A DNA stretch of 64,000 nucleotides, taken from the NCBI RefSeq assembly GCF_041248615.1, contig NZ_CP158426.1; one strand, given 5' to 3'. The notes under the pieces were generated by a model. The model did no database searches and was not told the origin of the DNA. It saw only the letters and a list, made by a program, of their open reading frames with translations. Shown here piece by piece: positions 56,733 through 64,000 of this stretch (positions within the stretch are counted from its first letter, which is position 1; each line of letters opens with the position of its first letter). Origin of the DNA: Escherichia coli (GTDB taxonomy: Bacteria; Pseudomonadota; Gammaproteobacteria; Enterobacterales; Enterobacteriaceae). A program made the translations under genes and the position numbers.

Positions 56733-57518
56733 CTACGCGTCTTCCTGGGGAAGGATGATTTCAATTTGGCTGTCTTGTAAGCGTGATTTTAGCGCAGCGG
56801 GCGGCAGCTCGTCGGTAAAGAGCGCAGTGACCTGTGCCACGTTACCAATTTCAACCGCCGCCGAAGCATGATACTTAGTGTGATCGGCGACCAGCAGAAT
56901 ATTTCTCGCGTGCGCCATCATCGTTTTCACCACGTTAGCTTCGTTTACATCAAACTCCATCAACGCGCCATCGCTCTCAATCGCCCCAACGCTTGTTACC
57001 AGATAATCAGCACGAAAATCAGCCACAAAGGACGCCGCTGAAGGGCCAATGATCCCGCTATTATGAGAGCGCAACGTACCGCCGGGCACCATCACTTCAA
57101 AGCGCGGGTTGTGGTAAAGAATATGCGCCACACGCAGGCTGTTGGTGATTATCCGCAAATGATTGTGGTTAAGTAACGCCCGGGCGACATGTTCAACGGT
57201 CGTACCAATGGTGATAAATATTGTTGAACCATCAGGAATATAGTCTGCCACCGCTTCGGCAATCGCTTTTTTCTCTTCAGTTTGCGAAACCTCACGCTGC
57301 TCAAACGCCGTATTAACGACGCTGGAGGCCCGACCCGCGCCACCGTGATGGCGCGTGATCAGCCCTTGCTCGCTTAATTTACGAATATCCCGGCGGACCG
57401 TCTGCGTGGAGACATCCAGCAGATTTGCCAGCTCATCAATATTCATATACCCACGCTCGGCGATCAGCATGAGGAGTTGGTCGTGCCGCGGGTTACCGGT
57501 TAGTTCGGTAAGGCTCAT
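56733..57518 (-). CDS. yihW: DeoR-family repressor of the sulfoquinovose operon (YihW/CsqR)
   Basis: ATG at 57518 gives MSLTELTGNPRHDQLLMLIAERGYMNIDELANLLDVSTQTVRRDIRKLSEQG... (261 aa). Confidence 0.9.
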   Translation of the reverse strand: MSLTELTGNPRHDQLLMLIAERGYMNIDELANLLDVSTQTVRRDIRKLSEQGLITRHHGGAGRASSVVNTAFEQREVSQTEEKKAIAEAVADYIPDGSTIFITIGTTVEHVARALLNHNHLRIITNSLRVAHILYHNPRFEVMVPGGTLRSHNSGIIGPSAASFVADFRADYLVTSVGAIESDGALMEFDVNEANVVKTMMAHARNILLVADHTKYHASAAVEIGNVAQVTALFTDELPPAALKSRLQDSQIEIILPQEDA

Positions 57519-57551
57519 GAAAATTCCTCGAAAAACCATCACCCTGGCATT

Positions 57552-58448
57552 TTATACAAAAAGTGACAAAAAAGATCGGGTTTGATCACAGTCAGGGATC
57601 CCGGCTCGTCCACCGGGACGCGTGCATTTCAACGCCGCTACACCGCTGGCGAAGCGGACTGACTCCGCTAAATCCCCATCTGTTGCCAGCGCCACCGCCA
57701 ATGCGCCGTGAAAAACATCACCCGCACCGGTGGTATCTACCACATCAACTTTGAAGGCCGGTTGATGTTGACGTCCGCCATTTTCCAGCCAGTCACAGCC
57801 TGCGCTGCCCTGGGTCACATAGACATGACCATTTGTGAGCGTTTGTGCCTGTTTTAGCGCACTGGCCATCTCTTTCACGCCCGTTAAGCGCACCAGACCC
57901 GGTTCTGAAAAGGCCGCGTGATCGCTTAATGCCACCAGCTCGCTGATATCCTGCGGCGTAATGTCCCCGTCCAGAACGGTCATCACGCCCGCCTGCCGGG
58001 CCAGAGTGAAGGCTTTTTTAGCACCGTCGTGCCAGCGTACATCTGCCAGCACAACATCCCACTGAGAGAAATCAATTTCCTCCAACCACTCTGCGTCAGG
58101 CAGCAGGTCCGGGCTGGGGTAGTTAATGATTATCCGCTCGCCTTTGGCATCCACCATGATGGCGGATTGCGAGGATTTCGCCTGGTTATACCGTTTGGTG
58201 TAACGGGTGTTAACGCCCCAGGATTCCAGCTCTGCCAGCAGGCTGTTGCCCGTGTCGTCATCACCTACGCGACCAATAAAATCAACCTGCGCCCCCAGCC
58301 TTGCCGCCGCAACCGCTGCCGTCGCCGCTGGCCCGCCACCAACTTCCGTATAATTTCTCGCCACGTATTTACCGCTCTCCGTCGGTAATCCTTCCACGTA
58401 ATAAATACGATCCATCACGGTAATACCTACACAAGCAACACGAATCAT
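57552..58448 (-). CDS. yihV: 6-deoxy-6-sulfofructose kinase (PfkB family)
   Basis: ATG at 58448 gives MIRVACVGITVMDRIYYVEGLPTESGKYVA... (298 aa) with C-terminal DTTGAGD motif. Confidence 0.9.
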   Translation of the reverse strand: MIRVACVGITVMDRIYYVEGLPTESGKYVARNYTEVGGGPAATAAVAAARLGAQVDFIGRVGDDDTGNSLLAELESWGVNTRYTKRYNQAKSSQSAIMVDAKGERIIINYPSPDLLPDAEWLEEIDFSQWDVVLADVRWHDGAKKAFTLARQAGVMTVLDGDITPQDISELVALSDHAAFSEPGLVRLTGVKEMASALKQAQTLTNGHVYVTQGSAGCDWLENGGRQHQPAFKVDVVDTTGAGDVFHGALAVALATDGDLAESVRFASGVAALKCTRPGGRAGIPDCDQTRSFLSLFV

Positions 58449-58615
58449 GGTCATTCCTTAAGCATTTTGGGATGCGTTCATTTTAATTTCACCAATTGTT
58501 TAAAAAGTGACGGCTGTCAATTTTTTGACGATAAATTACAAATACGATCAAAAAAAGACAAGCAAAGCATGTCATAAATGACAAAAAGTGACATCACTGT
58601 ATTCAGGAGAGGGTT

Positions 58616-61671: not shown

Positions 61672-61729
61672 CTGAGCTGAAATAACGGCATATCAGGCTA
61701 CATGCCGGGTATGTCGTTATTCAATAAAG

Positions 61730-62641
61730 GTGCCTCGTATGCAAATCACCAACATGCATTGCAGTGGACAAACCGTTTCACTTGCCGCGGGGGATTATCA
61801 CGCGACTATCGTGACGGTTGGTGCTGGTCTGGCTGAATTAACTTTTCAGGGTTGTCATTTAGTCATCCCACACAAACCCGAAGAGATGCCGCTGGCGCAT
61901 CTGGGTAAAGTGCTTATTCCATGGCCGAACCGGATCGCCAACGGCTGTTATCGCTATCAGGGGCAGGACTATCAGTTACCCATTAATGAACATAGTTCAA
62001 AAGCCGCTATTCACGGGCTGCTTGCCTGGCGTGACTGGCAAATTAGCGAATTAACCGCCACCAGCGTTACCCTGACAGCTTTTCTGCCGCCCAGTTACGG
62101 CTATCCGTTTATGCTGGCTTCACAAGTTGTTTATTCGCTCAATGCACGCACGGGTCTTTCCGTTGAGATCGCAAGCCAGAATATTGGTACTGTGACCGCA
62201 CCTTATGGTGTGGGTATTCATCCTTATTTAACCTGCAACTTAACATCTGTTGATGACTATCTTTTCCAGCTTCCGGCAGAACAGGTTTATGCCGTCGATG
62301 AGCACGCAAATCCGACAACGCTTCACCACGTTGATGAGTTGGATTTAAATTTCACGCAGGCGAAAAAAATAGCCGCGACAAAAATCGACCACACCTTTAA
62401 AACCGCTAATGATCTGTGGGAAATGACCATTACCCATCCACAGCATTTGCTTTCGGTGAGCCTCTGTTCCGATCAACCCTGGGTGCAGGTTTATAGCGGT
62501 GAAAAATTACAGCGTCAGGGACTGGCAGTTGAACCTATGAGTTGCCCGCCTGATGCGTTTAATTCCGGCACCGATTTAATATTACTGCAACCCGGAAAAA
62601 CACACCGCCTGTTTTTTAATATTTACGGACAGAGAAAATAA
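61730..62641 (+). CDS. yihR: Aldose-1-epimerase-family protein (sulfoquinovose mutarotase)
   Basis: 303-aa ORF from GTG 61730 (alternative ATG at 61739). Confidence 0.85.
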   Translation: MPRMQITNMHCSGQTVSLAAGDYHATIVTVGAGLAELTFQGCHLVIPHKPEEMPLAHLGKVLIPWPNRIANGCYRYQGQDYQLPINEHSSKAAIHGLLAWRDWQISELTATSVTLTAFLPPSYGYPFMLASQVVYSLNARTGLSVEIASQNIGTVTAPYGVGIHPYLTCNLTSVDDYLFQLPAEQVYAVDEHANPTTLHHVDELDLNFTQAKKIAATKIDHTFKTANDLWEMTITHPQHLLSVSLCSDQPWVQVYSGEKLQRQGLAVEPMSCPPDAFNSGTDLILLQPGKTHRLFFNIYGQRK

Positions 62642-62845
62642 CTTGTATTGATTAGCAGTCAAAATCATTGAAGAACATTTCACTCGCTAAAGGCAACGTT
62701 ATGTATCATCAATTTATTAAGTTAAAAACAGCTCAGCTTCTTTAAAGTTTATATATATCAGTTTTATGAGAATCATTTTACATAAGCCTGTAATAACAAT
62801 AACAGGAAGGAAACAACCTCGTTCTCAACTCTATGGAGATTATTT

Positions 62846-64000
62846 ATGGATACGCCACGCCCACAGTTATTAGATTTTCAATTTCATCAGAATAACGACA
62901 GTCTTACCCTACGTTTTCAGGGCCGTCTTATTTTAACCCATAGTAAAGATAATCCTTGTTTATGGATTGGCTCAGGTATAGCGGATATCGATATGTTCCG
63001 CGGTAATTTCAGCATTAAAGATAAATTGCAGGAGAAGATTGCGCTCACCGACGCTACCGTCAGCCAGTCACCGGATGGCTGGTTAATCCATTTCAGCCGT
63101 GGTTCTGACATTAGCGCCACGCTGCGTATCTCTGCCGACGAACAGGGCCGTTTATTGCTGGAACTACAAAACGACAACCTTAACCACAACCGTATCTGGC
63201 TGCGCCTTGCCGCTCAACCAGAGGACCATATCTACGGCTGCGGTGAACAATTCTCCTACTTTGATCTGCGCGGCAAACCGTTCCCGCTATGGACCAGTGA
63301 ACAAGGCGTTGGTCGCAACAAGCAAACCTATGTCACCTGGCAGGCCGACTGCAAAGAGAACGCGGGCGGCGACTATTACTGGACTTTCTTCCCACAGCCT
63401 ACGTTTGTCAGCACGCAGAAGTATTACTGCCATGTTGATAACAGTTGCTACATGAACTTCGACTTTAGCGCCCCGGAATACCATGAACTGGCGCTGTGGG
63501 AAGACAAAGCAACGCTGCGTTTTGAATGTGCTGATACATACATCTCCCTGCTGGAAAAATTAACTGCCCTGCTGGGACGCCAGCCAGAACTGCCCGACTG
63601 GATTTATGACGGGGTAACGCTCGGCATTCAGGGCGGGACGGAAGTGTGTCAGAAGAAACTGGACACCATGCGTAACGCGGGTGTGAAGGTTAACGGCATC
63701 TGGGCGCAGGACTGGTCCGGGATCCGTATGACCTCTTTTGGCAAACGCGTAATGTGGAACTGGAAGTGGAACAGCGAAAACTATCCGCAACTGGACTCAC
63801 GTATTAAGCAGTGGAACAAAGAGGGCGTGCAGTTCCTGGCCTATATCAACCCGTATGTAGCCAGCGATAAAGATCTCTGCGAAGAGGCGGCAAAGCGCGG
63901 TTATCTGGCAAAAGATGCCTCTGGCGGCGACTATCTGGTGGAGTTTGGCGAGTTCTATGGCGGCGTTGTCGATCTCACCAATCCAGAAGCCTACGCCTGG
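62846..64000 (+). CDS. yihQ: Alpha-sulfoquinovosidase (GH31), 5' partial; runs off the window end
   Basis: ATG at 62846, open to 64000 (hence absent from the ORF track): MDTPRPQLLDFQFHQNNDSLTLRFQGRLILTHSKDNPCLWIGSG... Confidence 0.9.
   Translation, partial: MDTPRPQLLDFQFHQNNDSLTLRFQGRLILTHSKDNPCLWIGSGIADIDMFRGNFSIKDKLQEKIALTDATVSQSPDGWLIHFSRGSDISATLRISADEQGRLLLELQNDNLNHNRIWLRLAAQPEDHIYGCGEQFSYFDLRGKPFPLWTSEQGVGRNKQTYVTWQADCKENAGGDYYWTFFPQPTFVSTQKYYCHVDNSCYMNFDFSAPEYHELALWEDKATLRFECADTYISLLEKLTALLGRQPELPDWIYDGVTLGIQGGTEVCQKKLDTMRNAGVKVNGIWAQDWSGIRMTSFGKRVMWNWKWNSENYPQLDSRIKQWNKEGVQFLAYINPYVASDKDLCEEAAKRGYLAKDASGGDYLVEFGEFYGGVVDLTNPEAYAW

Follow-up and report, generated by a model that had tools for sequence, protein, structure and literature searches.

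A K-12-type sulfo-EMP gene cluster, from csqR to mid-yihQ, in a 64,000-nucleotide window of Escherichia coli DNA

The gene cluster for the sulfoglycolytic version of the Embden-Meyerhof-Parnas pathway (sulfo-EMP) of E. coli K-12 MG1655, ompL-yihOPQRSTUVW (b3875-b3884), was reportedly described by Denger et al. in 2014. The published cluster comprises 10 genes, ompL and yihO-W (PMC8006165), and K-12 grows on sulfoquinovose (SQ) with excretion of 2,3-dihydroxypropane-1-sulfonate (DHPS) and SQ-induced transcription (PMC12608037, PMC8006165). A 'short' yihTUVW cassette of the Nissle 1917-like type has also been described (Kaznadzey et al. 2025, PMC12608037), in which YihW is ~72% identical to the K-12 protein (PMC12608037). 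We analyzed a stretch of E. coli DNA of 64,000 nucleotides (hereafter, the window) and found that positions 56733-64000 are almost certainly a chromosomal sulfo-EMP sulfoglycolysis cluster of the K-12 type ('long form'), extending from csqR (yihW) to the middle of yihQ. This is an already known, textbook system, from which the field learns nothing new; the polymorphisms described below, in the spacers and in TauE/SafE, are minor side points.

Coordinates follow the window numbering and were obtained from a listing of the open reading frames (ORFs) of 54000-64000 and from the RefSeq annotation of NZ_OW967178.1. The listing contained two minus-strand ORFs (56733-57542 and 57552-58454), a 167-bp gap, four complete plus-strand ORFs, and one frame that remained open off the window end. 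The minus strand carries first csqR (yihW) and then yihV; beyond a divergent region of 167 bp, the plus strand carries yihU-yihT-yihS-yihR-yihQ. Two RefSeq chromosomes, NZ_OW967178.1 and NZ_LT599825.1, were 100% identical to the window over all 8,001 bases of 56000-64000, and both were annotated csqR, yihV, yihU, yihT, yihS, yihR, and yihQ. When the same region was compared by megablast with 5,426 complete E. coli genomes, which served as the population set throughout, it was matched in 5425/5426. Further, each gene was aligned globally at the protein level with its counterpart in the MG1655 locus, and the DNA identity was computed. The six complete genes had the K-12 length, with no frameshift, internal stop, or indel; the DNA identity ranged from 94.0% (yihR) to 98.7% (yihU) and the protein identity across the cluster from 94 to 100%. 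The enzymes had 1-17 residue differences each from K-12. Because the region was found in nearly every genome and each gene was this close to K-12, a chance match is of no concern. The features of the locus are as follows.

56733..57518, minus strand: csqR (yihW), DeoR-family repressor, 261 aa (K-12 identity; annotated csqR in NZ_OW967178.1)
57519..57551: yihV-csqR spacer, 33 bp (33/33 identical to K-12)
57552..58448, minus strand: yihV, sulfofructose kinase, 298 aa (K-12 alignment, PDB 7AG6)
58449..58615: divergent yihV / yihUTS control region, 167 bp (164/167 identical to K-12, no indels)
58616..59512, plus strand: yihU, 3-sulfolactaldehyde reductase, 298 aa (K-12 alignment, NF012005, PDB 6SM7)
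59536..60414, plus strand: yihT, sulfofructose-1-phosphate aldolase (class I), 292 aa (K-12 alignment, PDB 7AG1)
60430..61671, plus strand: yihS, sulfoquinovose-sulfofructose isomerase, 413 aa (K-12 alignment, PDB 2RGK/7AG4)
61678..61723, plus strand: predicted stable hairpin in the yihS-yihR spacer (RNA fold)
61739..62641, plus strand: yihR, sulfoquinovose mutarotase (aldose-1-epimerase family), 300 aa (PRK15172, PGAP start)
62642..62845: yihR-yihQ spacer, 204 bp, AT-rich (alignment to K-12)
62846..64000, plus strand: yihQ, sulfoquinovosidase (GH31), 5' part, codons 1-385 of 678 (K-12 alignment, PRK10426, 5AED)

The best PDB matches of YihV, YihS, YihQ, YihT, and YihU were the very sulfo-EMP enzymes that have been characterised from E. 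coli or Salmonella, and all 25 published catalytic and sulfonate-pocket residues that fall inside the window (residue list taken from PMC8006165) were conserved. YihV, which differed from K-12 by three substitutions (T101A, A186V, S257D), matched 7AG6, 'Sulfofructose kinase', with E=5e-198 across residues 1-298 and kept the sulfonate pocket Lys27-Asn109-Arg138 as well as Asp162, Asp244, Asp13, and Ser95. YihU carried two substitutions (N73S, G84S), kept the pocket Asn174-Ser178-Arg123, matched 6SM7 best (E=1.5e-190), and scored 603 bits against the NCBIfam model NF012005, 'sulfolactaldehyde 3-reductase' (cut-off 348). In YihT, with the single substitution C209S and 7AG1, 'Sulfofructosephosphate aldolase', as the best match (E=2e-192), the Schiff-base Lys193 was kept together with Arg253, Ser226, Ser227, and Ala26. 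The top matches of YihS, which had three substitutions (T138A, E346D, M399L), were 2RGK (yihS; E=4e-297) and 7AG4, 'Sulfoquinovose isomerase'; its catalytic His248/His383 and sulfonate pocket Arg55-Gln362-Gln379 were kept, as were Phe239, Trp316, and Trp51.

The window ends within yihQ. The part inside it (1155/2037 nt) was open to the last base without stops, and its residues 1-385 differed from K-12 by nine substitutions. This fragment matched the YihQ sulfoquinovosidase structures 5AED/5AEE (E=1e-270) and passed PRK10426 with 641.7 bits (cut-off 553; profile positions 2-386 of 683). The pocket residues Arg301 and Trp304 were present, and the catalytic Asp405/Asp472 and Tyr508 lie past position 64000. 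In NZ_OW967178.1, yihQ is full length (678 aa), has Asp405, Asp472, and Tyr508, and ends 882 bases past the window's last position; yihP, yihO, and ompL follow, all intact. The transport roles assigned to these genes are DHPS export for yihP, SQ import for yihO, and a porin for ompL. By analogy with that genome, an intact 3' half of yihQ and intact yihP, yihO, and ompL probably lie beyond the window. NZ_OW967178.1 matched the window exactly over 46105-64000 and at 99.987% over 3483-48000 (five mismatches, one gap), and differed from it in the rearrangement hotspot (RHS) region. On account of the differences in the RHS region and in 3483-48000, NZ_OW967178.1 is a close relative and not necessarily the source.

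An earlier reading of the window from its letters, hereafter the sequence-only reading, had proposed yihW-yihV / yihU-yihT-yihS-yihR-yihQ, and the genes, their order, and their orientation were borne out by the ORFs and by the annotation of the identical genome. The sulfo-EMP identity it had assigned by likeness to K-12 was upheld by the gene-by-gene alignment to MG1655, the PDB matches, and the conserved residues, and the divergent arrangement with a DeoR-type regulator was confirmed, csqR and yihV being on the minus strand and yihU onward on the plus strand, with CsqR identical to K-12. Frameshifts or truncations on closer alignment had been named as what would overturn it; the K-12 alignment revealed none, with the sole exception of the cut made in yihQ by the window end. 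The description of the cluster as complete has to be withdrawn, as yihQ runs off at codon 385/678 and yihP, yihO, and ompL lie beyond the window end, and the 'five catabolic enzymes' become six, encoded by yihV, yihU, yihT, yihS, yihR, and yihQ. The placement of the permease genes yihO and yihP past the window end agreed with NZ_OW967178.1; ompL, which also lies there, had not been named.

The ratio of nonsynonymous to synonymous substitution rates (dN/dS) relative to K-12 (Nei-Gojobori) was 0.00-0.13 for every gene, indicating purifying selection on all genes, yihR included. The synonymous divergence (dS) was uneven: it was lowest for yihU and csqR (~0.05-0.07), intermediate for yihV and yihT (0.10-0.13), and highest for yihS, yihR, and yihQ (0.18-0.22, with ~0.21 for yihS and yihQ). 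This gradient suggests a mosaic, recombining locus that may have breakpoints inside the cluster.

The most diverged gene was yihR: its DNA was 94% identical to K-12, its protein carried 14 substitutions in the 300 aa common to both strains, and its dN/dS was 0.13. Two start candidates were considered, ATG 61739 (300 aa) and the alternative GTG 61730 (303-aa ORF). YihR scored 612.6 bits against the NCBIfam aldose-1-epimerase model PRK15172 (cut-off 251), and the 300-position profile aligned from residue 4 of the 303-aa GTG ORF, that is, from ATG 61739, where the NCBI Prokaryotic Genome Annotation Pipeline (PGAP) also places the start in the identical genome. In the window, the ATG annotated for K-12 is shifted out of frame by a 4-bp indel that lies immediately upstream of yihR. 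The in-frame ATG eight codons downstream (61739; K-12 codon 9) is common to both strains and is preceded, 8 nt upstream, by an AAGG Shine-Dalgarno-like motif. The likeliest reading of these sequences is that YihR has 300 aa in both strains and that the 308-aa start of K-12 is an over-extension. An N-terminal divergence of YihR (M1R, S2Y, L3S, C8R) was considered and rejected as an artefact of forcing the K-12 start; it is explained by the 4-bp indel before the shared ATG. The SQ mutarotase of the cluster is present as an intact 300-aa ORF that passes PRK15172. In a PDB search at E<=1e-20, YihR had no close relative of solved structure.

The spacers on either side of yihR also differed from K-12. 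The K-12 yihS-yihR spacer is 113 bp long and contains a GC-rich element (…CCCTCTCCCTAACCCTCTCCCCAAAGGGGCGAGGGGACC…), whereas the window spacer (61672-61738) is without ~66-70 bp of that element, a GC-rich repeat that we take to be boxC-like. The short type of this spacer was present in 1,647 of the 5,426 genomes. RNA folding of 61669-61745 gave -25.1 kcal/mol (z = -3.4), and 0/200 shuffles folded as well; the hairpin at 61678-61723 may act in transcript processing, stability, or partial termination. The yihR-yihQ spacer is 198 bp in K-12 and 204 bp in the window, the two differing by a 6-bp indel and seven substitutions.

The CsqR protein was 261/261 identical to that of K-12, and all 12 DNA differences in csqR were synonymous. 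Its NCBIfam matches were to DeoR/GlpR-family models, all below the equivalog cut-offs. The mechanical ORF of csqR reaches GTG 57542 (269 aa); the K-12 start is ATG 57518. Met25 has been proposed as the start of a short CsqR isoform (PMC10991401), and with the start at ATG 57518 and identity to K-12, Met25 is also present here. In K-12, the yihV-csqR spacer contains the csqR promoter region and a CRP site and is a target of CsqR (PMC5816610; PMC12608037, section 2.4). CsqR has one strong target in the K-12 genome, the yihV/yihU spacer, where the protein binds and is released in an SQ-dependent manner, the releasing ligands being SQ, SQ-glycerol, and sulforhamnose (PMC8249747, PMC8006165, PMC12608037). 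In the window, the yihV/yihU spacer holds short repeats, such as AAAAAGTGAC, which occurs twice, and the yihU-yihT spacer was 23/23 identical to K-12. Both the DeoR-family CsqR and the divergent-spacer operator are thus present by sequence (261/261; 164/167; 33/33). Since the window encodes the same repressor as K-12 and has a nearly identical operator, we infer that the source strain would regulate the cluster through CsqR as K-12 does. A consensus scan of 56500-64000 for sigma-70 promoters and terminators gave two promoter-like sites compared with 7.8 expected, none of them in the divergent control region, and was uninformative. An Rfam scan of 56000-64000 found no family at the gathering score.

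The mechanism that we propose is drawn from experiments in K-12 and Salmonella and is carried over to this locus by near-identity. When no inducer is available, CsqR would bind cooperatively at the 167-bp yihV/yihU region and at its own upstream region, and SQ, SQ-glycerol, or sulforhamnose would free it from the DNA. SQ glycosides would then be cleaved by YihQ, the SQ anomers interconverted by YihR, and SQ converted to sulfofructose by YihS. Phosphorylation of sulfofructose by YihV would yield sulfofructose-1-phosphate, which YihT would split into dihydroxyacetone phosphate, entering glycolysis, and sulfolactaldehyde. The latter would be reduced by YihU to DHPS, which would be exported. By analogy with K-12, the source strain would be expected to express and regulate these genes and to grow on SQ.

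The yih locus is labile: about 1327/5426 genomes carry a ~67%-identical four-gene short cassette instead (PMC12608037), IS1-mediated deletions occur in some strains and IS1 insertions in others, and yihR is the most diverged gene, with the K-12-annotated start out of frame. These observations would fit a cluster that is cryptic or decaying, a pseudogenised remnant without SQ catabolism. However, no gene had a frameshift or an internal stop, every tested functional residue was kept, and the dN/dS values stayed at 0-0.13 even with yihR at the upper end. The in-frame ATG of yihR with its AAGG motif, conserved in both strains, fits the 300-aa NCBIfam model as well. Decay is therefore extremely unlikely. 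The short yihTUVW cassette itself, Nissle 1917-like and not SQ-induced, was considered since it shares the chromosomal position (PMC12608037). It found no support in the window, in which yihS, yihR, and yihQ are present and csqR-yihT is ~98% identical to K-12, compared with the ~67% match of the short-cassette genomes, and we give it no weight.

Kaznadzey et al. 2018 proposed for K-12 a second lactose/galactoside route, which would make sulfoglycolysis not the main role of the cluster, or not its only one. This proposal draws on the lactose-dependent induction of yihT, yihS, and yihV and on YihW-dependent promoter switching in K-12 (PMC5816610), and in the window the NCBIfam matches of YihT were to tagatose-1,6-bisphosphate aldolase families only, all below the cut-offs. 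On the other hand, YihS, YihV, and YihT show specificity for sulfosugars, have dedicated sulfonate pockets, and are inactive on the glycolytic analogues (PMC8006165); all of those pocket residues are conserved in the window. A lactose response would at most be an additional regulatory input and not a different locus identity, and we regard this proposal as very unlikely for the locus. Two points do weigh against the K-12-type sulfo-EMP cluster that we prefer. The window does not reach the 3' 43% of yihQ or any of the three transport genes, and their integrity is borrowed from NZ_OW967178.1, which is 100% identical over 56000-64000 but not over the whole window. Further, regulation could be altered by the three substitutions within the 167 bp of the operator region and by the restructuring of the yihS-yihR spacer. 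The sequence itself holds nothing at odds with the sulfo-EMP identity.

Other parts of the window were described from the annotation of NZ_OW967178.1. A variable island of ~4.4 kb (~48976-53335, between yiiE and fabY) contains two hypothetical genes, a NadS-family gene with an adjacent small gene, an alpha/beta hydrolase gene, a transposase gene, and a truncated gene; the NadS-family gene and its small neighbor are possibly a toxin-antitoxin pair. All that strain LR-06 carries at this position is a pseudogene remnant of 117 bp. Downstream of rhaM (~38619-41056), the near-identical genome is annotated with a carbohydrate porin gene of 1,395 bp, along with a yiiG pseudogene that is truncated at its 5' end; at this position K-12 presumably has the frvABXR genes. 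Positions 1-4530 carry an RHS element core protein gene and a sel1-repeat gene and are the only part of the window that clearly differs from NZ_OW967178.1; window 1-2050 aligned at 98.7% to a shifted position of that genome (L003 1435-3484). RHS genes are variable and repeat-bearing, which this difference fits.

The K-12-type csqR-yihT segment (at least 95% identity) was present in 4,035/5,426 complete genomes and yihS-yihR-yihQ in 4,018/5,426. A version with ~67% identity, annotated as a sugar kinase, yihU, an aldolase, and a DeoR regulator, was found in a further 1,327/5,426. These counts fit the published dichotomy of long and short cassettes (PMC12608037), and the window, judged by its genes, belongs to the common long form. 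Its exact allele is uncommon: identity of at least 99% was found in 123 genomes over 8 kb and in 34 over yihS-yihQ. In LR-06 (NZ_AP025546.1, L005:8001-9241), IS1 lies beside a truncated csqR and the genes from yihV to yihM are gone; here the entire sulfoglycolysis cluster has been lost in a naturally occurring, IS1-associated deletion. The source strain would thus be among the roughly three quarters of E. coli that carry the K-12-type SQ-inducible cluster, not the four-gene short cassette, and can probably use SQ from dietary plant sulfolipid, releasing DHPS to other gut bacteria. Beyond correct annotation this is of little importance; the polymorphisms (the spacer repeat, TauE/SafE, and the yihR start) concern pathway specialists and curators of K-12.

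An 876-bp gene of the TauE/SafE family, annotated 'sulfite exporter', lay between yihR and yihQ in 1,296/5,426 genomes, including O157:H7 strains, and makes an 11-gene cluster. In one example, STO_Bone2 (NZ_CP054161.1; L004:6773-7648), it replaces all but the last ~60 bp of the spacer. In its main text, the 2025 survey of yih cassettes (PMC12608037) is silent on this sub-form. We tentatively consider that the long cassette has at least three sub-forms, with or without the putative sulfonate or sulfite exporter and with or without the GC-rich repeat, and that the window is a minority combination, the short spacer without TauE/SafE; this scheme is rather doubtful. If the sub-forms matter, the transcription of yihR and yihQ and the exit of DHPS or sulfite from the cell would change. 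A decayed TauE/SafE gene in the 204-bp spacer was considered and rejected, since homology to STO_Bone2 was confined to the last ~60 bp upstream of yihQ.

Compared with the TauE/SafE variant of STO_Bone2, the window has an identical, short yihS-yihR spacer and 98.1% identity over yihS-yihQ. Unlike that variant, both the window and K-12 are without the TauE/SafE gene and have in its place ~140 bp of AT-rich DNA with no detectable similarity to it. The short cassette occupies the same chromosomal locus and encodes members of the same four families, namely a DeoR regulator, a sugar kinase, a reductase, and an aldolase. In contrast to the window, it is without yihS, yihR, yihQ, and the transporters, lies in reverse orientation, has ~67% DNA identity, and is not SQ-induced (PMC12608037); the window has yihS, yihR, and yihQ and a CsqR that is 100% identical to K-12. 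The cluster of K-12 MG1655 has the same genes in the same order and orientation as the window, with the same neighbors, yihX, yihY, dtd, and fabY, on one side.

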